64,000 nucleotides of DNA from Bdellovibrionota bacterium (GTDB lineage: Bacteria; Bdellovibrionota_C; UBA2361; OMII01), in NCBI GenBank assembly GCA_044356215.1, contig JBIKWQ010000004.1:3748-67747 (forward strand). Direction: 5' to 3'. The translations under genes were made by a program, and so were the position numbers. Positions 3,141-54,107 of the stretch are shown here, in pieces. Each line of letters starts with the position of its first letter. The first letter of the stretch is position 1. The notes beneath the pieces were generated by a model, which was not told where the DNA came from, made no database searches, and was given only the letters and a program-made list of their open reading frames with translations.

Positions 3141-4238
3141 ATGTTTGAATTACTGGTTCTTTTAATTAAGGTTGGCTTCGTGCTGAATATGGCGCTGGTG
3201 TTGGGGTCGCTCTGCACCTGGCTAGAGCGTAAGGGCTCCGCTCTTATTCAAGATCGTGTTGGAGCAAATCGCGCCGGAGCGTTCGTTCAATCTGACAGGT
3301 GGTATGTAAAGCCAGCGTTACCGTTAATCCGTATGATGGGGTGGCTAGGTGTTATTAACACCCTTCTTTGTGATTCGGTAAAAGGGCTTTGGAAAGAGGA
3401 TTTCATTCCAGAGGGGACCTCAAAGTTTCTTCACGCTGTGGCGCCGATAATCGCTGTTTTGCCGATAATGTTGGCGTTCGCTGTTTTGCCACTCGCACCA
3501 GATTTTAACCTCTTTGGCTATTACATTCACCCGCGGGTGGCTCCGATCGACGCGGGGCTCCTGTTTGTGTTGGCGATGGGTTCAGTTGCTGTTTACGGAG
3601 TCGCGATAGCCGGATGGACAGGAAACAATAAGTTCTCCCTCCTCGGATCGCTCAGAGCCGCGGCGCAGATGATCTCATACGAGCTTCCGATGGGCGTGGT
3701 GTTTGTCGCGCTGATCGTTGTTTACGGGACTCTCGATGTTTACTCGATCGTTGAGAAACAAGGGGAGCTGTTGTGGGGAATCGTTCCCAAGTGGGGAGTC
3801 ATTGTTCAGCCAGTGGGCTTTGTGGTGCTGCTGTTAGCAGGCATGGCTGAGACTAAGCGTGGACCGTTTGATTTACCGGAAGCCGAGTCTGAGTTAGCGG
3901 CGGGATACTTTACAGAGTATTCGGGTATGAAGTTTCTGCTTTTCTGGTTGGGCGAGTTCTGTGAGATAGCGCTCTTCGCTCTCTTACTTAGCTTACTTTT
4001 CTTTGGTGGATGGCAGATCCCGTGGGTTAATTTGCCAGAAGGGGTTTGGTGGGCAGCGCTGATCGGCCACATCGTTTTGATGTCTAAAGTGGTGTTCTTC
4101 TGCATATTACAGATCGTTATCCGCTGGACGTTGCCGCGTTTTCGCTATGACCAGCTGATGAATCTAGGGTGGAAGATGTTGTTGCCAGTTAGTTTGTTGA
4201 ACTTAGCCGTAACGGCGATCGTTAAGGTACTAGCATGA
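3141..4238 (+). CDS. nuoH: NADH-quinone oxidoreductase subunit H (ND1)
   Basis: Polytopic membrane protein with ERKGSALIQDRVGANR motif near the N-terminus; position in operon. Confidence 0.8.
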   Translation: MFELLVLLIKVGFVLNMALVLGSLCTWLERKGSALIQDRVGANRAGAFVQSDRWYVKPALPLIRMMGWLGVINTLLCDSVKGLWKEDFIPEGTSKFLHAVAPIIAVLPIMLAFAVLPLAPDFNLFGYYIHPRVAPIDAGLLFVLAMGSVAVYGVAIAGWTGNNKFSLLGSLRAAAQMISYELPMGVVFVALIVVYGTLDVYSIVEKQGELLWGIVPKWGVIVQPVGFVVLLLAGMAETKRGPFDLPEAESELAAGYFTEYSGMKFLLFWLGEFCEIALFALLLSLLFFGGWQIPWVNLPEGVWWAALIGHIVLMSKVVFFCILQIVIRWTLPRFRYDQLMNLGWKMLLPVSLLNLAVTAIVKVLA

Positions 4239-5091: not shown

Positions 5092-6980
5092 GTGATATGC
5101 TAAGCTTGGAAAGTTTGTTGGCGTCGTTGGTGCTTATACCGGCGGTAGGATCGGCACTGTCTTACTTGGTCGGAAGGGTTTACCCAGCGTTGGCGGGAGC
5201 TGTCGCCTCGCTCGCTGTGATCGCGGCATTTGTCTGCTCACTCGCTTTGTGGAGCGGGCTGTCCTCTCTCTCAGGAGGAATAACCACTTCGCTTAGCTCA
5301 TGGCTTACTTTCGGGGATTTTAATGCACCACTAGAGCTTTACTTTGATCAGCTCTCAGCTGTGATGTGCTTAGTTATCACCGGTATCGGTTCGCTGATTC
5401 ACATTTATTCCATGGGATACATGGCTCACGATGAGAGTCGTCCACGATTCTTCGCCTACCTGAACCTTTTCGTGGCGTCGATGTTGGTTCTTGTCTTAGG
5501 TAAGTCGTTACCGGTTGTGTTCATTGGATGGGAAGGGGTAGGGCTCTGTTCTTATCTGTTGATCGGATTTTGGTTTACCAATCGTGATTACGCAAGCGCT
5601 GGTCGTAAGGCTTTTGTGATGAATAGGATCGGCGATGTTGGATTCCTGGTGGCGATGGCTGTTCTGTTCCGCTATTGCGGGACCCTAGATGTGGTTAGCT
5701 TGAATACCCCCGGAGTTTTAGCAAAGCTTCCCGCGGATCTCGGTCTAATCGCTGGACTCGCGCTGTTTGTAGCGGCTACTGGAAAGTCAGCTCAGCTTCC
5801 ACTCTTTACATGGCTTCCTGACGCGATGGCCGGTCCCACTCCTGTATCAGCTCTAATCCATGCGGCGACGATGGTGACGGCTGGCATTTACCTAATGGGA
5901 CGTATGCACGGGGTAATAGAGCTTGATCCGTTCGTTCCGGCGACGATTATGTGGGTGGCTATAGCAACGGCGGCTCTGTCAGCAACGGTTGCGCTAGCTC
6001 AAAATGACATAAAGAAGGTCTTGGCTTACTCAACAGTAAGTCAACTAGGGTTTATGTTTGTGGCGGTAGGAGCTGGATTCTACGCGGTGGCTCTGTTTCA
6101 TGTGGTAACACACGCTTTCTTTAAAGCGTGTCTTTTTTTGAGCGCTGGTTCAGTTATTTATGGCTGTCACCACGAGCAGGATATGAGACGAATGGGTGGA
6201 CTTGCGAAGAAGATGCCACTTACCTGTATCTCATACGGAATAGCCACATTAGCGATAGCGGGAATAGCGCCACTAGCTGGATACTTCTCAAAGCACGCGA
6301 TCTTCGAGGCTCTGGCTGAATCGAGCAATGTCTATCTCGCGGCTAGCTTGCCAACCCTTAGTTTAGTGGCGACTTTAGTTGCGATATGTACGGCTCTGTA
6401 CATGGCTCGCTCATTCATTATGACCTTCCTGGGATCGTATCGTGGGACGGAGCATCCTCACGAGGCTCCACTTGTGATGACAGCTCCGGTTCTTGTTCTG
6501 GCGCTCCTCTCAGTGGTTGGAGGTCTATGGCTACATCACTCTTTACCGGAGTATGTAACGGGGCCACTTCCGGCTACGTCGTTACACGCTGAAAGTGATG
6601 GCGGGTTGATGTCTTACATCATCGGATCTCTTCCGGGGATCGTAGGTATTGGTCTGGCTTTGGTGATGTATCTCTTTGTTCCGGCTATCTCTTCCGCAAT
6701 AAGTTCGGTCGCGTGGCCTCTAGAGCGGCTCTTCGCCGGCAAGTATTTCATCGATGAGTTGTACGATCGGTCGATAGTGAGGCCGTTAACCGGCATCTCA
6801 CAGGCACTCTCACGTGGTATCAATCAGACCTTCGTTGAGGGGAGTGGAAACGCGGTGGGGATAGTCACGCGCGCCGTAGGCGAGCTTACCTGCCGAGCAA
6901 CGTCGGGTCAGGTAGCGACTTACGTGTTAATAATGTTTGGAGCGATAGCGTTCCTACTTAGTGTATTTGTTAAAGTGTGA
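5085..6980 (+). CDS. nuoL: NADH-quinone oxidoreductase subunit L (ND5)
   Basis: 631-aa antiporter-like subunit; start at ATG 5085 or ATG 5097. Confidence 0.9.
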
Positions 6981-35922: not shown

Positions 35923-36034
35923 TGATATGGCTGTTAATGCAAGTGAGAAGTGGGGGTTAGGTAGTATTGGGCTGTCTCGGCACTTTACGGGTCGCTAGGT
36001 CTTGGTGTAGCATCCCACGGAGTTTCTGCTTTAT

Positions 36035-40479: not shown

Positions 40480-40884
40480 TCACAATAAATCAACCGCGCC
40501 AGTTTTTCTTAGTGTCTCGTCAGCGGTAGCGAATACAAGTTTGTTCTCAAGAGCAGTAGCCACTAAGAAGCGATCGGCTGGATCGCCGTGATCAAAGTTA
40601 AGTCTTCGCGATCTGAGCGCGATTGGAAAGGTCAGCGGGGCCTCCTTAAGCGAAAATTCGGAGAGCGCTGATTTAATCCAAGAGGCGGGCGTTCCCTTTA
40701 CCGCTAATCTGCCTCTCTCTATCAGTAAGTGAGCCTCCCAGATTGAAACCGGACTAAGGAATAGCTCGTTGTCTGGATTGTCTAGCCCGACTTTTTGCTT
40801 CTTGTTTAATCGCTTGTCACCAAGCAGGTACCAGAGCCAAATGTGGGTATCGAGCAGGATCCTCACTTTATGAGCGCCTCCCAA
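40480..40884 (-). CDS. vapC: PIN-domain ribonuclease toxin (VapC-like)
   Basis: N-terminal LLDTHIWLW PIN signature with conserved acidic residues; overlaps the upstream antitoxin by 22 nt. Confidence 0.75.
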   Translation of the reverse strand: MGGAHKVRILLDTHIWLWYLLGDKRLNKKQKVGLDNPDNELFLSPVSIWEAHLLIERGRLAVKGTPASWIKSALSEFSLKEAPLTFPIALRSRRLNFDHGDPADRFLVATALENKLVFATADETLRKTGAVDLL

Positions 40885-42517: not shown

Positions 42518-44018
42518 CCCCGAGTCCGACGGAAAGCGGATCCTTAGAGGATTCCAGTGGACCTATATCTCAGTAGCTTTGCAGGGGCTACTTAAACTAG
42601 TTGCTCTGATGATACTCGCGCGGATACTCACTCCGCGTGATTTCGGTCTACTTGGATTCGCTCTTATCTGCACAAACTTCGTGGAGCGAATCGGGCAGGG
42701 GGGCTTCGCTCCCGCGATTGTACAGGTCGAGGAAGCTACTCAGAGCATAATAACAACAGCTGCGCGCACTAGCGTTGCTTTCGGCTTCTTTTCGATGGCT
42801 GTTTTGGCTCTTAGCTCAGGGGCGGTCGCCACGTTTTTTGGTGAGAGGGAGTTAGCTCTTGTAGTCATAGCGCTCAGTGTCGGATGTCTAATCGAATCTA
42901 TAGTCGCGATACCAGAGGCTTTGTTACAGCGAGAGTTGCGGCTCAAGGAGATTATGTTGGCCGAAAATGTAGCCTATCTGATATCAATGATCGCGATCTG
43001 CCCAACTATGGCGCTCTTTGGTTGGGGCGTCTGGTCATTAGTCATAGCGCAGCTCTCTTTGAAGGTAATTAGGTTAGTTATGATTCAAAGAGCGGCGCCA
43101 CCTTGTCTGTCAGGTATGTGGTCGACAGTGGAGGCGCTCAAGCTGACAAAGCTAGCATTTGGTTTTAGCCTAGGAAGACTCCTAAATTTCTTCTCGCTGC
43201 AGGGAGATAATTTTGTAGTCGGAAGGCTTTTAGGTACTGAGGCGCTTGGAATGTACAACCGAGCCTATCAGCTGATGACCCTGCCAGCGATGTACTTCGG
43301 TCAGGTATTCGAGCGAGTTATGTTTCCGGCGATGGCTAGAAAGCAGAGCAACAAGAAGGAGCTGGGAGATGAGTTCCTAATTGCACTTGAGGTGATTACA
43401 GCGATAGCGCTGCCAGCAGGGGTGGTGATGTTTGCTTTGGCTAACGAGATCGTGCTTGTTGGGTTTGGACCTCGGTGGATAAGTGTGGTTCCAGTGGTTA
43501 GCGTACTTTCCTTCGGTGTCTTTTTTAGAACTGCCTATAAATGCAGTGATACAGTAGTGCGGTCGTTAGGAGCAGTTTATGATTATGCCGGTCGACAAGC
43601 TCTGTACGCAACCCTTGTGATCGGAGGGGCTTATTTCGGCGCTAAGTATGATCAGATAGGTGGTGTCGCCGTCGGAGTGGTCTTAGCTGTGGCGATTAAT
43701 TATGTTTCGATGACCCGACTTAGCTCAAAACTTTTAGGTTTGAGGATACGTCAGATTGTTTGGACGCACGCGCTTGGGATCTGGAGCAGCCTTTGGGTTA
43801 GTGCCGGGTTGGCGTTGGCGATGGGTGAGCTCAGAAACCTGGAGCTATCGCCTGTGATATTATTGATGACGGCAGTAGCGGTTGCTCTTATTAGCTGGAC
43901 ACTCAGCGTTCTAATTGCGGCACTGCTTGTTCCGTCCATTAGTGTACGTAGAGCAATGATATATTTAAGAACGGCTAGGAGGGTTAACCGTATTGGGGAG
44001 CCAAGGGGGATTGTTTAG
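42507..44018 (+). CDS. wzx: Wzx-type polysaccharide flippase (MOP/PST family)
   Basis: 503-aa 12-14 TM protein with PST-family N-terminus; divergent from the ligase gene. Confidence 0.75.
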   Translation: MTHTPESDGKRILRGFQWTYISVALQGLLKLVALMILARILTPRDFGLLGFALICTNFVERIGQGGFAPAIVQVEEATQSIITTAARTSVAFGFFSMAVLALSSGAVATFFGERELALVVIALSVGCLIESIVAIPEALLQRELRLKEIMLAENVAYLISMIAICPTMALFGWGVWSLVIAQLSLKVIRLVMIQRAAPPCLSGMWSTVEALKLTKLAFGFSLGRLLNFFSLQGDNFVVGRLLGTEALGMYNRAYQLMTLPAMYFGQVFERVMFPAMARKQSNKKELGDEFLIALEVITAIALPAGVVMFALANEIVLVGFGPRWISVVPVVSVLSFGVFFRTAYKCSDTVVRSLGAVYDYAGRQALYATLVIGGAYFGAKYDQIGGVAVGVVLAVAINYVSMTRLSSKLLGLRIRQIVWTHALGIWSSLWVSAGLALAMGELRNLELSPVILLMTAVAVALISWTLSVLIAALLVPSISVRRAMIYLRTARRVNRIGEPRGIV

Positions 44019-44024
44019 TTCTCC

Positions 44025-44046
44025 TTTAGGGAAGGCCGGCAAAACC
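44025..44046. repeat. Solo copy of the 22-bp repeat TTTARGGAAGGCCGGCAAAACC (same as the MITE-like element ends)
   Basis: TTTAGGGAAGGCCGGCAAAACC 7 bp after the wzx stop; matches 46128-46149 and the reverse complement of 46367-46388. Confidence 0.7.
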
Positions 44047-46098: not shown

Positions 46099-46127
46099 GG
46101 ATAATAAAGGATTTACCGAGGTTTTCA

Positions 46128-46388
46128 TTTAAGGAAGGCCGGCAAAACCCCTCCCTACTGCGAAAGCGGATCTTGAGCTGCTCTTCGAGTTTTCGAGATG
46201 GGAAAAAATCCTCAATGTATCACAGCGGATACACTTCCGACCTTCGCTAAAGCTACGGCCGGCGAGATAATGTAGGACCAGACGTAGCCGTGGCGTAGTC
46301 TGGTGCGGTTTTTCCCCATCTCGAAAATCGAATATCAACTCAACCTCCACTTTCTCGCTACGGGTAGGTTTTGCCGGCCTTCCTTAAA
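46128..46388. mobile_element. MITE-like 261-bp element with 22-bp terminal inverted repeats TTTAAGGAAGGCCGGCAAAACC and extended internal dyad symmetry
   Basis: Left end 46128-46149 is the exact reverse complement of right end 46367-46388; internal second inverted repeat (TTTTCGAGATGGG(G)AAAAA); a solo end copy at 44025; the 73-aa ORF inside it is probably spurious. Confidence 0.6.
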
Positions 46389-50232: not shown

Positions 50233-51195
50233 ATGAAGAAGGTATTGGTAACAGGAGCTGCGGGATTTATCGGTTCGCATGTGGCAGAGGCTCTGCTCAA
50301 GCGTGGTGACCAGGTAGTGGGAATAGATAACATAAACGACTATTACCCAGTTAAGTTTAAACGTGAAAATCTGGAGATCCTCGCACGCCATCCCGGGTTC
50401 AAATTCGTTGAAGGTGAGTTAACAGATAAGCACCTTGTAGATTCACTCTATGAAACAGAGGGATTTACGCATCTAGCGCACTTAGCGGCGAGGGCAGGAG
50501 TCAGACCCTCAATAGCCGATCCAGGGTTGTATCAGCGCGCTAATATCGAAGCCACTTTAAACCTGCTTCAGGGAGCTGTAGGTAAGGGCCTAGAGAATCT
50601 AGTTGTCACGTCTTCTTCTTCGGTTTACGGAAATTCGAGAGCAATACCTTTTCGTGAAGATGACTCGGCAACTGATAGACCGATCTCTCCTTATGCAGCG
50701 ACAAAGAAGGCCACTGAGGTGTTGAGCTATACGTATCATTCTCTTTACGGGCTCAATATAAATGTAGTGCGCCCATTTACTGTTTACGGAGCTAGGGGGC
50801 GTCCTGATATGGCCCCGTGGCTGTTTATTGAGTGGGCACTCCAAGGAAAGAAGATCCGCAAGTTCGGCGATGGAACAACGCGCCGTGACTATACTTACAT
50901 CGGCGATTTTGTTGCGGGCTTCGTAAACGCTATAGATCGTAACTTTGGCTACGAGATCTTTAATCTTGGAAATTCGGCTACGGTTTCGCTGAATGAGGCG
51001 CTCGATATCGTGCGAGAAGTGACCGGCAAGGAACTTGTGATCGAACAGCTCCCGGAGCAGCCGGGGGACGTGGCGATCACAAACGCTGACATATCGAAAT
51101 CGAGAAGGCTTCTTGATTACGATCCTAAGACATCTTTTGGGGCAGGGATGCTCAAGTTCTGCCAATGGTACAAAGAGAACCGGCTAGGGCGGTAA
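50233..51195 (+). CDS. NAD-dependent nucleotide-sugar epimerase (UDP-glucuronate/UDP-GlcNAc 4-epimerase-like)
   Basis: GAAGFIGSH Rossmann motif, YxxxK (YAATKKA); 320 aa. Confidence 0.8.
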   Translation: MKKVLVTGAAGFIGSHVAEALLKRGDQVVGIDNINDYYPVKFKRENLEILARHPGFKFVEGELTDKHLVDSLYETEGFTHLAHLAARAGVRPSIADPGLYQRANIEATLNLLQGAVGKGLENLVVTSSSSVYGNSRAIPFREDDSATDRPISPYAATKKATEVLSYTYHSLYGLNINVVRPFTVYGARGRPDMAPWLFIEWALQGKKIRKFGDGTTRRDYTYIGDFVAGFVNAIDRNFGYEIFNLGNSATVSLNEALDIVREVTGKELVIEQLPEQPGDVAITNADISKSRRLLDYDPKTSFGAGMLKFCQWYKENRLGR

Positions 51196-51235
51196 GCTAA
51201 CCGGTGTAACCAGTTTTCTAGGTCTGTATATCCAT
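51164..51235. repeat. 72-bp direct repeat, copy 1 (covers the epimerase 3' end)
   Basis: Identical to 52700-52771; encodes the epimerase C-terminus (QWYKENRLGR*) on the + strand. Confidence 0.9.
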
Positions 51236-51405
51236 TTTACCCCGTGAACGGTTACTCCATTTCGTTCATGGACTCTGTTATGAGGCTTATCGATGTGCGA
51301 TCGGGCTTAAGTCCATAAAGCTGGGGCACACCAACAGTATACCATAAATTTAACACCTGTTTAAAATACTTTACATTATATTGAATAGGTATTAAGTTTA
51401 CAGCT

Positions 51406-52602
51406 ATGAGTACTAGAGCCCTTTCCTCGCATATTCTCGCCGATTTAAAGGGTAAAAAGATGGTAATGCTTTCCGGCCCTCGCCAATGTGGAAAAACGAC
51501 ATTGGCGAAAGCGCTTCCTGAACTATCTTCTGATATGGCGTACTACAATTGGGATGTTGCGCCGCACAGAGAAAAACTTAAAAATTACAAACTTGATGAA
51601 TCAAAGCACTATTGGGTTTTCGATGAACTTCATAAATATCGAGCCTGGAGAAATTGGCTCAAGGGGGTTTACGATTTACACCATACACATCATGAAATTT
51701 TAATAACTGGCAGCGCACGACTTGACCAGTACGCACGAGGGGGAGATTCACTCCAGGGCCGCTATTTTCACTACCGTTTACACCCCTTTACCTTAGGGGA
51801 GGTTCTTAACCTACCAGAACAAAATTATCGCAAATCCTTAGAACGAGCCGCTAAGGTTAGTTGGTCTGCTCACGCTCAAAATACACTGCTAGAACTATTG
51901 AAATTCGGTGGCTTTCCGGAGCCTTTTTTAAGTAAGTCGACAAGCTTTGCAGGTAGATGGCGCTTGGCGTACAGCCAGCGTTTGGTGAACGAGGATGTTA
52001 GAACACTTGAACAAACGCAAGAATTAGATCAGATGAGTTTATTGTACGACCGCTTACCAGACTTAGTTTCGAATAATCTATCGATCAATAACCTAGCAAA
52101 AGATCTGGAGATCTCCCACCAAACCGTCGCTAAGTGGATCGGAATTTTTGAGAAATTATATGCTAACTTCTACGTCTTGCCTTATGGTGAGCCTGCAATT
52201 AAGGCCATAAAAAAAGAAAAGAAACTGTATCTCTGGGATTGGGCGCGCCTATCAGATCCAGGGGCGAGGCTAGAAAATCTCGTAGCGCTGCATTTACTAA
52301 GGTTAGTGCATTGGTTTGAGGATATCTACGGAGAGATACTTGAGCTCAGATATATAAAAGATATAGATGGGCACGAAATTGATTTTTTACTCCTACGTAA
52401 TAAGCTTCCTTGGATTGCAATAGAAGTCAAAAACTCTGAGCAAGGCATCAGTACAGGTTTTAAATATTTGTTGAATAAAATTAGAATTCCATATGCCTAC
52501 CAGATCCATTTAAAAAGTGAACTAGTTTATAAACTCGCTAACATAAATCAGAGCACTGTTTATGCTTTGCCAGTGAGCAATTTTCTTTGTGGATTACCGT
52601 GA
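51406..52602 (+). CDS. AAA-family ATPase of the DUF4143/AAA_14 type
   Basis: Walker A GPRQCGKTT; typical ATPase plus DUF4143 C-terminal architecture; markedly AT-rich relative to its flanks. Confidence 0.75.
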   Translation: MSTRALSSHILADLKGKKMVMLSGPRQCGKTTLAKALPELSSDMAYYNWDVAPHREKLKNYKLDESKHYWVFDELHKYRAWRNWLKGVYDLHHTHHEILITGSARLDQYARGGDSLQGRYFHYRLHPFTLGEVLNLPEQNYRKSLERAAKVSWSAHAQNTLLELLKFGGFPEPFLSKSTSFAGRWRLAYSQRLVNEDVRTLEQTQELDQMSLLYDRLPDLVSNNLSINNLAKDLEISHQTVAKWIGIFEKLYANFYVLPYGEPAIKAIKKEKKLYLWDWARLSDPGARLENLVALHLLRLVHWFEDIYGEILELRYIKDIDGHEIDFLLLRNKLPWIAIEVKNSEQGISTGFKYLLNKIRIPYAYQIHLKSELVYKLANINQSTVYALPVSNFLCGLP

Positions 52603-54107
52603 GAAGTTCTCTGGCGCAGGGTCGAACGGGTCGTAGGAGGGTAGTTCATCGAGAGCCTCTGACGCATCGATGAACTTCGGGATGGGGGGGAGGTGCTCGA
52701 ATGGTACAAAGAGAACCGGCTAGGGCGGTAAGCTAACCGGTGTAACCAGTTTTCTAGGTCTGTATATCCATCGTGATTTCGGTCTGACATAGGGCTCCGC
52801 GGTAGCCTTAATCTTCTTGTTCGATTCGGAGATGAACGTGAGGTCCCGCCAGCCCTCAGACACCCAGATACACAGTCTTTGAGGCTCCCGGAACGGTTGG
52901 TAACATCGGATATGATCCGCTGATCGATAGGGGAGCGATTGCGCGGTCGGCTACCTACATCCGAGATAAGTTTTGAATACGCGGCTTCGCTCGGAAGATT
53001 GTTGAAGGCACCGGAGGTAATTGGTGGATATCCGGCACGAAAGGTTTCTTCATCAAGCTTGGTTAACGACCAGGACCTGTTGCTATTTAAGTCGCCTTTT
53101 AGCTCGCTATCCTCGATATAGATCCGGCTGGAGATCGCTAGTGCGCTAGCATATATCGGAGGTGCGACAAAGCTCCATGGACCTGGAATGTAGGAGTTGC
53201 CTATGAAAGTAAGAGAAACGGGATCGGCGGTGCCGTCATTATTTGATATGTTACAGAGAGACCAAGGGCCGCGGCCCCCCCAGCCGTAAACGGTATTGTT
53301 GATCATCTCTACTGAGGCCCCCGGTTTGATATAGGGATTGCGCTCCTCGTTTGATGCAATCAGATTGTTGCGCAGCGTAATTCTCTTCGAAAGGTCGCCA
53401 ATCATGACTCCTTTGCTGTGAGGTCCTTTTGGATGGATGGAGTTGTACAGCCCTTCGGCGATAAGGCAATTAGAGATAGTAACATCGTGAGTGTTAGGGT
53501 AGGCAGTTGAGATATTCTCATCAACTGCCCACGTCAATGAGAGGTGATCGACAACTACGTTGTAGGCTGATCTCGGAGGTGCGGCGCCTATGGACACCGC
53601 GTCTCTAAACCTGGGTTCAACGCCGGTATGATTGTCTCCTGGACGGACCGCAAGATGCTGCATCAGAACGTCGTGAGTTTCGACGCTAAATCCGCCCTGA
53701 GTAATTGTAATACCGGGATTGGGGGCGGTTTGTCCTGCGATAGTTATGTACGGATGTTTAATTTTTAGGATCGACTTAAGCCTAATCTCACCCGAGATCT
53801 CAAAGACGCATGTGCGGGGTTCCTTGGCGTTGATGCATTCCCTGAGCGAGCCAGGACCAGAGTCAGACAGACTTCGAATTCGAAAGATCCTAGTACGCGG
53901 TTTTTTTAGGTGGCGACCGCTTCCGGCCTGTGTCTCGACTCCGAATCCAGATAGCCCGGGTATTATAGGTAAATCGCGGCGTGTGTTGATGTCGGCTGCC
54001 GTTGCAGAGAGAACTTTACCCGATGCAATTGGTTCGGCTATCGAATTGAATAGTGTCGCGGCAAAAATTGCGACAGCAACAGGGGAGAGATCTTTAAGTA
54101 GGTCCAT
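52560..54107 (-). CDS. secreted right-handed beta-helix polysaccharide lyase (pectate-lyase family)
   Basis: Signal peptide MDLLKDLSPVAVAIFAATLF, pectate-lyase-like motifs (HPYITIAGQTAPNPG, DHLSLTW, DGYTDLENWLH); the C-terminal ~60 aa after ENWLHRL is low-complexity and is encoded antisense to repeat copy 2 and the insertion's right edge. Confidence 0.65.
   Translation of the reverse strand: MDLLKDLSPVAVAIFAATLFNSIAEPIASGKVLSATAADINTRRDLPIIPGLSGFGVETQAGSGRHLKKPRTRIFRIRSLSDSGPGSLRECINAKEPRTCVFEISGEIRLKSILKIKHPYITIAGQTAPNPGITITQGGFSVETHDVLMQHLAVRPGDNHTGVEPRFRDAVSIGAAPPRSAYNVVVDHLSLTWAVDENISTAYPNTHDVTISNCLIAEGLYNSIHPKGPHSKGVMIGDLSKRITLRNNLIASNEERNPYIKPGASVEMINNTVYGWGGRGPWSLCNISNNDGTADPVSLTFIGNSYIPGPWSFVAPPIYASALAISSRIYIEDSELKGDLNSNRSWSLTKLDEETFRAGYPPITSGAFNNLPSEAAYSKLISDVGSRPRNRSPIDQRIISDVTNRSGSLKDCVSGCLRAGGTSRSSPNRTRRLRLPRSPMSDRNHDGYTDLENWLHRLAYRPSRFSLYHSSTSPPSRSSSMRQRLSMNYPPTTRSTLRQRTSHGNPQRKLLTGKA
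52700..52771. repeat. 72-bp direct repeat, copy 2 (encodes the conserved C-terminus of the pectate-lyase-fold gene on the - strand)
   Basis: Identical to 51164-51235; its reverse complement encodes HDGYTDLENWLHRLAYRPSRFSLYH; a degenerate ~35-bp extension upstream resembles the epimerase 3' end with a G7 homopolymer. Confidence 0.9.

Follow-up and report, generated by a model that had tools for sequence, protein, structure and literature searches.

A 64,000-nucleotide stretch of DNA from an uncultured Bdellovibrionota bacterium (contig JBIKWQ010000004.1, positions 3,748 to 67,747 of the forward strand; hereafter, the window) carries a single-gene cassette between the convergent genes for a sugar epimerase and a right-handed beta-helix protein. 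The cassette encodes an AAA+ ATPase and is bracketed by two 72-nt direct repeats. The insertion and the accompanying duplication of its target are solid, and an earlier note on this DNA, made from the sequence alone, was right in its main reconstruction. Events of this kind are known, though unexplained, and the cargo is of a type new to them: we favor, with some reservation, the reading that a horizontally acquired single-gene cassette entered the chromosome by "insertion with long target duplication," a rearrangement described for restriction-modification genes (Nobusato et al. 2000, cited in Furuta, Abe and Kobayashi 2010, PMC2853133).

The duplicated target and its empty site

The features of the target, in window coordinates, are:

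50233-51195, plus strand: left target gene, NAD-dependent sugar epimerase (Pfam Epimerase, 179 bits)
51117-51163, minus strand: orphaned ancestral beta-helix tail, WQNLSIPAPKDVLGS followed by a stop, antisense inside the epimerase gene
51164-51235: repeat copy 1 (R), epimerase end and stop, then 40 nt downstream
52700-52771: repeat copy 2 (R), whose minus strand encodes the conserved C-terminal motif of the beta-helix protein
52560-54107, minus strand: right target gene, PelZ-like right-handed beta-helix protein

Alignment of the two copies gave 100% identity, bearing out the earlier description of the repeats as perfect. They form the sole long direct repeat in the window, with no third copy; their identity ends abruptly at both sides, and the chance expectation for a 72-nt repeat match in shuffles is 0. 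Copy 1 contains the last 10 codons and the stop of the epimerase gene (...QWYKENRLGR, then stop), in agreement with the open reading frame (ORF) at 50233-51195; one source calls the product a UDP-glucuronate 4-epimerase. Copy 2, read on the minus strand, contributes ...DGYTDLENWLHRLAYRPSRFSLYH to the beta-helix protein, and DGYT.LENW is an invariant motif among homologues of this protein. Both gene-end assignments had been made in the earlier note. The insert between the copies (51236-52699; 1,464 bp, one intact gene) has a G+C (GC) content of 42.3%, compared with 50.3% for the window, 48.9% for the epimerase gene, and 51.0% for the beta-helix gene, close to the 40% against 53% that had been estimated by eye.

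The uninterrupted junction was sought in related genomes, as the earlier note had proposed, and was found. Three loci (L008, L009, and L010) share the synteny of the window, hold a single R-equivalent, and lack the ATPase gene. These empty sites come from sister species, not from conspecific strains, and were aligned at the DNA level for L008 and L009. In all three, the epimerase and beta-helix genes overlap tail to tail by 79 bp, and the former overlap of the window reconstructs to 51117-51195, likewise 79 bp. The closest relatives of the beta-helix protein, P0002 (84% identity) and P0003 (76%), end in ...LYHSQNLDIPSLNDVLGS, matching the reading that survives antisense beside copy 1, ...LYHWQNLSIPAPKDVLGS and a stop. 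Contigs bearing P0002 share the order mraZ, rsmH, glmS, a 209-aa gene, beta-helix, convergent epimerase, wza, and wzc. Because the sister species keep this neighborhood with an empty site and the 79-bp overlap, the insertion is the derived state. Judged by these comparisons, the common ancestor had overlapping genes, and the cassette came later, duplicating target DNA.

The earlier note had equated the duplicated segment with the overlap. The genes did once overlap tail to tail, but the duplicated 72 bp is a different interval: compared with the ancestral overlap, its left end is shifted 47 bp to the right and its right end 40 bp. It starts 32 nt before the end of the epimerase gene and runs 40 nt past it. 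Owing to this position, the epimerase remained intact and the beta-helix protein kept its conserved motif and had its tail replaced. The epimerase gene thus retains its end, its stop, and a hairpin, while the beta-helix gene retains the DGYTDLENWLHRL motif and gains a read-through tail. Its last 46 residues and stop (52560-52699) are read from the insert and replace a poorly conserved ancestral tail of 15 residues, and the resulting C-terminal extension accounts for its excess length (515 aa, versus 455-483 aa in homologues). The ancestral tail and stop are still legible on the minus strand of copy 1 and the adjoining epimerase-end antisense, as NGYTDLENWLHRLAYRPSRFSLYHWQNLSIPAPKDVLGS followed by a stop. 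All three strain variants of the beta-helix protein (90% cluster) are of the 515-aa type with the insert-derived tail, and no empty-site allele of this species is on record. As RNA, copy 1 forms an imperfect hairpin followed by a T-run, resembling a terminator (R fold, -21 kcal/mol; z -1.8 on the plus strand and -2.9 on the minus strand; not significant as DNA). The same hairpin and T-run in copy 2 could terminate ATPase transcripts on the plus strand.

Assemblies from different samples and assemblers cross the junctions. Contig L002 (4.2 kb, 100% identical) spans both repeat copies, a 9-kb contig shows the same gene order as the window, and L023 crosses copy 2 with strain-specific single-nucleotide polymorphisms (SNPs) of its own. 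Short-k unitigs break inside R, as expected of a repeat, and the Logan unitig graph is compatible both with the integrated state and with an empty site plus a circle. L023 diverges from the window by 0.51% in the insert and 0.67% in the flanking gene; insert and neighbor have diverged alike, so the insert is about as old as the strain split, and we rejected a recent spread between strains on this ground. A separate unitig from the best-matching sample, L007, is 100% identical to window 51206-52659 and stops 40 bp before copy 2; its end falls inside a transposase-tail remnant (described below), which could reflect yet another variant or a gap in coverage in this sample.

Several samples contain a second allele (L005, L006), in which 1,653 bp stand in place of 51236-51330:

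L005 31-1682, also in L006: second-allele segment, 48.5% GC

This segment encodes a 444-aa protein with a coiled-coil N-terminal part fused to a RimI-like GNAT acetyltransferase (TIGR01575, 96.6 bits). The allele retains the ATPase, the transposase tail, and copy 2 at 99.86% identity, and it holds no integrase or integrase remnant. It opens with a C, the base that also follows copy 2 in the host, and the repeat could therefore be 73 bp.

The ATPase gene and its module

The insert divides into five parts:

51236-51295: left filler, 60 bp
51296-51344, plus strand: upstream module part common to the window and locus L019
51345-51400, plus strand: imperfect palindrome of ~56 bp, ending 5 bp before the ATPase start codon
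51406-52602, plus strand: cargo gene, 398-aa AAA+ ATPase (Pfam, PADLOC)
52603-52699, minus strand: right filler, IS91/ISCR-like transposase remnant (EHLPPIPKFIDASEALDELPSYDPFDPAPENF), 97 bp, 62% GC

The family assignment made in the earlier note stood up to a profile check of 51406-52602: the protein exceeds the Pfam cut-offs for both AAA_14 (82.6 bits; cut-off 27) and DUF4143 (72.9 bits; cut-off 28.1). Its Walker A motif reads GPRQCGKT. An AlphaFold2 model (predicted local distance difference test score, 84.7) comprises an AAA+ core, a helical, winged-helix middle part, and a C-terminal domain of alpha-beta-beta-beta-alpha-beta order that is PD-(D/E)xK nuclease-like. The PD-(D/E)xK residues D326, E340, and K342 are invariant across 20 homologues, and DUF4143 is listed in the PD-(D/E)xK superfamily (PMC3424549). 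Among solved folds, the closest are those of RuvB, RFC, Hda, and ORC-type AAA+ proteins; no sequence homologue was found in the Protein Data Bank. The ratio of nonsynonymous to synonymous substitution between contexts is 0.04-0.055, indicating that strong purifying selection has kept the gene functional.

The protein matches the PADLOC candidate defense family PDC-S01 (PDLC04790; E 3e-50), a very common fusion of an ATPase to a PD-(D/E)xK domain (PMC12988326, PMC3424549). This family ranks as the fourth most common defense candidate, a status that rests on genomic association and awaits validation (PMC12988326). The cargo shares with PDC-S01/COG1373 the same domain architecture (AAA_14, then DUF4143) and a strong hidden Markov model match; it differs in that mobility as a minimal promoter-plus-gene cassette and an upstream palindrome are not described in the literature found. 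Homologues of the ATPase adjoin AbiEii, PIN, Schlafen-like, and second AAA_14 genes. We predict that the protein is probably an ATP-driven DNA-binding nuclease acting in defense or in plasmid or phage exclusion. Scans with the ATPase yielded one partial locus from metagenomes, nothing from viral contigs, and two weak matches from plasmids.

Near-identical copies in other genomic contexts support the earlier suggestion that the cassette is foreign and point to a portable unit. Window 51345-52605 is 87.7% identical to copies in L016-L018 that adjoin DinB and tRNA-Pro, and window 51296-52610 is 95.5% identical to the copy in L019, which adjoins DUF2442 and DUF4160 genes; the flanks of these copies are unrelated to those of the window. 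At 41.5-42.4% GC, the L016 and L019 contexts resemble the cassette and not its present host. The other module copies show neither flanking repeats nor R-like sequence. We also considered whether long flanking repeats are a general trait of the gene family, a notion rejected because they are missing within 600 bp of the gene in all six loci checked (L012, L013, L014, L016, L019, and L021).

The palindrome at the upstream edge of the coding region has the half-site TAAATTTAAyACCTrTTTAAAAT. Reverse self-matches were detected in 7 loci, and the inverted repeats in L016, L017, and L019 have arms of 23-31 nt that are 84-96% complementary (fold z, -4.1). It recurs at L016 4121-4180, L019 228-283, and L020 3456-3512, as well as in L021, L012, L013, and L014, and it is kept where the DNA of homologues is only ~65-70% identical and their proteins 55-63% identical. 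Pyrimidine/purine changes are swapped between its two arms. The palindrome overlaps a -35/-10-like pair, TTTACA-17-TAAGTT, that was noted by inspection (a consensus scan did not rise above shuffles). We infer a putative promoter-operator of a near-leaderless gene, and probably an autoregulatory operator for the ATPase's own putative DNA-binding domain; as such, the palindrome is a testable regulatory element.

Right of the ATPase, the earlier note had reported a degraded echo of the epimerase 3' end. This proved illusory: local and anchored alignments were no better than shuffles (p 0.17-0.47), and the stretch is instead a transposase tail on the opposite strand. The tblastn match to this tail covers 52603-52701 on the minus strand, its last 33 codons; the conserved end abuts the ATPase stop codon, and at the opposite end the tail breaks off where copy 2 begins. 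In a full-library search, the tail matched 49 families of short ORFs (32-205 aa) at up to 80% identity, always at the C-terminus. Longer members continue upstream as a zinc-ribbon segment, which has a weak match to the C-terminal region of the ISCR_clade_Ia transposase. Members have unrelated N-termini and a constant C-terminus, and no full-length transposase occurs among the carriers. The family looks, from these alignments, like the widely dispersed and variably 5'-truncated end of an IS91/ISCR-like element. Since matches to the family reach the ATPase stop on one side and the copy 2 border on the other, the supposed echo is the cut end of a rolling-circle insertion sequence (IS). None of the other module copies carries it.

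IS91/ISCR elements co-mobilize neighboring genes, and the insert resembles them in containing the end that lies on the C-terminal side of the transposase. It differs in its 72-bp target duplication and in having only 97 bp of such an element left. IS91-family insertion produces no target duplication and takes place beside a specific tetranucleotide, and the oriIS end lies downstream of tnpA (PMC13181058), a geometry that puts the ATPase outside the mobilized direction. The remnant therefore fails to explain the structure, because IS91 makes no duplication and the rolling-circle direction leads away from the ATPase.

Elsewhere in the insert, the left filler matched no sequence fetched for comparison, and no terminal inverted repeats joining the insert ends were found, although small subterminal hairpins occur at the left end. 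Comparison of the window, the second allele, and locus L020, which holds another repeat-flanked ATPase gene, shows no conservation of the insert ends. The insert is thus a patchwork piece of a donor variable region, its ends cut at arbitrary points. Neither the insert nor the 38 largest window ORFs scanned include an integrase or an intact transposase; the remaining window genes are nuo, ribosomal protein, exopolysaccharide, and cell-division genes. The earlier statement that the insert lacks a recombinase gene consequently stands for intact genes and needs qualifying for the 33-codon remnant.

How the cassette entered the chromosome

To count as an insertion with long target duplication, an insert must be under 20 kb and free of mobility genes, its repeats must exceed 30 bp, and both must align with an empty site in a related genome (PMC2853133). 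At this locus, the empty site is present in sister species (L008, L009, and L010), the duplication is 72 bp, and the 1,464-bp insert contains a transposase remnant of 33 codons as its only trace of a mobility gene. Homologues of restriction and modification genes are lacking. With AAA_14/DUF4143 cargo and no methyltransferase in the insert, the locus represents the same type of rearrangement and not a restriction-modification case. Repeats of the class often span start or stop codons, its nuclease-type cargo includes solitary mcrA and orphan methyltransferases, and its mechanism is unexplained, with DNA breakage by the cargo suspected (PMC2853133). Our locus resembles the class in its unique repeats that span a gene end, in the GC content of an insert unlike its host, and in carrying a nuclease-type conflict gene; it differs in its target of overlapping convergent genes, in its host, an uncultured bacterium whose place in the Bdellovibrionota is made probable by named relatives of the beta-helix protein and the ATPase, and in an empty site known from sister species rather than from a conspecific strain.

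We envisage that the ends of a linear donor fragment would have been joined to targets 72 bp apart by illegitimate recombination (end joining or template switching). If the two joins took place, for example, on sister duplexes at a replication fork, the interval between them would be copied twice. Only events that spare both flanking genes would survive selection. The DNA break may have been made by the encoded nuclease, a role also suggested for restriction enzymes. That the transposase tail is truncated right at the junction is what would be expected of an arbitrary donor fragment. We also considered breakage caused by a hairpin or cruciform in R, a candidate rejected because the structure is modest as RNA, insignificant as DNA, and absent from the L020 repeat.

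PDC-S01 genes are reportedly among the commonest candidate defense genes of bacteria and archaea, and their mode of action and spread are poorly understood. The locus offers a clean empty-site case of such a gene arriving as a minimal promoter-plus-gene cassette without a recombinase. It would extend the long-target-duplication class from restriction-modification genes to another nuclease-type conflict gene and to another phylum, and it supports a part for the nuclease cargo itself in the insertion event. It is also an example of overlapping convergent genes pulled apart without loss, with both neighbors usable after a 72-bp duplication.

Several points weigh against this reading. The two insert alleles part company precisely where copy 1 ends (to within 1 bp), and such re-use of a junction is predicted by a site-specific process and not by a random one. 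A length of 72 bp would not be unusual for the att identity block of an integrase-driven element. The joining step is unobserved, no donor sequence covers either junction, and the search for a recombinase covered 64 kb of this genome. The definition of the class rests on restriction-modification genes, for which the mechanism is likewise unexplained (PMC2853133). Finally, the sole PDC-S01 member tested gave E. coli no protection against T4, T5, and T7 (bioRxiv 10.1101/2024.09.26.614923).

The strongest alternative is site-specific integration, with R as the attL/attR identity block of a small integrative element that targets the epimerase 3' end and whose integrase has been lost or acts from elsewhere. 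Its classic signature is a pair of direct repeats, tens of base pairs long, by which the 3' end of a target gene is restored, and the Logan unitig graph, with contigs breaking in R, would also fit an empty site plus a circle. Cis-mobilizable elements (CIMEs) retain attL and attR after losing their integration genes, and the locus resembles them in its direct repeats, which rebuild a target gene 3' end, and in the missing internal integrase (PMC5704250). It differs from CIMEs in that decayed integration or transfer genes are absent, no related integrase-bearing element is known for the site, and the insert, a mosaic piece of donor DNA, lacks arms of its own. Other findings also count against integration at an att site: neither allele nor the 38 ORFs contain an integrase or a remnant of one; the insert amounts to about one gene plus arbitrary donor scraps, its right arm being a transposase tail cut at the junction; the other module copies are free of R-like sequence and of repeats; the site is empty in both sister species, where no other type of insert is seen; and this species has no recorded empty-site allele. 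The earlier note had argued from the length of the duplication to a site-specific or homology-mediated mechanism. That does not follow, since a recombinase-free class with long duplications fits at least as well (PMC2853133). We regard site-specific integration as unlikely, and keep it under consideration because the junction shared by the two insert alleles, to within 1 bp, is what a trans-acting recombinase predicts.

Several other insertion routes were also set aside. A tRNA or tmRNA target is excluded by position, the only tRNA in the window being at 36034, and no known RNA family was found in or near R. An integron cassette or a dif/Xer site conflicts with the host origin of R, a native coding sequence that the empty relatives share, and with the failure to find an integrase; R was inspected by eye only, which revealed TGTATA and nothing XerD-arm-like. 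DNA transposons and IS elements share with the locus the principle that staggered attack and gap filling would duplicate an interval, as they do in transposon target-site duplications and in CRISPR repeat duplication. Known transposases, in contrast, yield duplications under about 15-26 bp and have defined element ends, whereas here the ends are arbitrary, the duplication is 72 bp, and there is neither an intact transposase nor a pair of terminal inverted repeats.

A second repeat-flanked copy of the gene bears on a different possibility, namely that PDC-S01 ATPase-nuclease genes are selfish mobile units, as proposed for restriction-modification systems. In another Bdellovibrionota genome, L020, a 77%-identical ATPase gene is enclosed by direct repeats of 81-82 nt:

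L020 3259-3339 and 4845-4926: direct repeats, 91-95% identical

The spacing of these repeats is 1,586 bp, compared with 1,536 bp in the window, and a flank test scored 127 for L020 and 144 for the window (shuffle maximum, 28). The L020 ATPase lies between a methyltransferase gene and an lpxB-msbA fusion gene, and repeat-flanked copies of this ATPase gene also occur in at least seven further contigs from other samples. In near-identical strains (loci compared: L020, L033, L034, and L035), the left neighbor is ThrRS or a LytTR regulator, and of the repeat only the downstream copy is present, the upstream one being absent. The 99.6% identity of these strains begins 11-13 bp before the palindrome and extends rightward. 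Among strain variants of the window lineage as well as of this one, the sequence that precedes the gene is exchanged at a point 11-14 bp ahead of the palindrome. A look-up of the empty site for the L020 context returned no DNA. The data are suggestive of L020 as a candidate second insertion with target duplication. The 8-mer AGGGCGGT is common to R (51186-51193) and the L020 repeat (3280-3287), at positions 23-30 from the left end of each; we did not use it, as it was noticed post hoc (p about 1e-3 to 1e-2), may be due to chance, and reads TAGGTCGAT in the empty site of the relatives.

Were the genes self-mobile, the protein would break or nick its target at two points 70-80 bp apart, promoting insertion of its own gene, and the 56-bp palindrome at the 5' edge of the module would serve as a cis-acting site. 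The near-equal spacing of the L020 repeats, the left-context swaps by the palindrome, and the junction shared between alleles are hints in this direction. We nevertheless consider self-mobility quite unlikely.

Insertion of the Campbell type, in which a circle already bearing R and the cassette crossed over with chromosomal R, would yield exactly the observed R-insert-R topology in a single crossover. Such a circle might come from excision in another strain or from a rolling-circle misfire of an IS91/ISCR-like element that captured flanking DNA, and an IS91/ISCR-like end does lie inside the insert beside copy 2. Complex class 1 integrons offer an analogy, with a duplicated segment around ISCR1 and captured genes. 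This route would explain spread but not origin, since joining R to the cassette needs an earlier event. Moreover, 72 bp is a poor substrate for RecA-type recombination, and no contig spanning a circle was found. Starting at the oriIS end, rolling-circle copying would also run away from the ATPase (PMC13181058). On balance, we judge the Campbell route decidedly improbable.

The whole insert might instead be a 5'-truncated IS91-like rolling-circle transposon, with the ATPase as cargo between the transposase gene and the origin end. The tail family is known only as variably 5'-truncated copies with a constant 3' end, and the small hairpins at the left end of the insert would suit such an element. 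The want of target duplication and the specific tetranucleotide target of the IS91 family (PMC13181058) speak against it, as does the absence of the tail from all other module copies; the tail ends at the codon that abuts the ATPase stop, which places the ATPase outside the IS91-like element. These observations make such a transposon very improbable. Scarcely credible is an ancestral arrangement from which relatives lost the cassette, or an assembly artifact: recombination between 72-bp repeats would leave exactly one R, and short-read contigs do break inside R, but the insert is 8 GC points under its host with its closest relatives in other genomes, the ancestral beta-helix tail and stop survive beside copy 1 and match the relatives, and both junctions are crossed by contigs from several samples and assemblers, one with its own SNPs.

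Minor repeats and a solitary PIN gene

A 72-nt repeat of another kind occurs in L016, where the 5' half of tRNA-Pro(GGG) and 33 nt upstream of it are repeated at 99% identity (5760-5831 and 5902-5973). The copies are 142 bp apart and about 380 bp from the ATPase module. We rejected it as a third case of insertion, because it looks, by comparison with L017, like native sequence duplicated locally in tandem.

Several Bdellovibrionota loci, though not the window, contain palindromic units resembling repetitive extragenic palindromic (REP) sequences (CTCTAT..CTCAGAGGC.TAGAG), which often abut the ATPase module or sit just inside the L020 repeats:

L020 3347-3372 and 4812-4836: REP-like units
L021 2712, 4814, 4903, and 5884: REP-like units
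L012 5940, 7178, 7663, and 7749: REP-like units
L016 3948-4046: REP-like units

Within the window, the sugar transferase and glycosyltransferase genes of the exopolysaccharide cluster lie between the copies of a 29-nt direct repeat (44018-44046 and 46121-46149; 90% identity, 2,103 bp apart). This pair is probably not an insertion, since the bracketed genes are also present in a relative. A solitary PIN-domain gene (40480-40884, minus strand), located between DUF898/M48 peptidase genes and the Wzy-like polymerase gene of the polysaccharide cluster, may be another small conflict-type islet.

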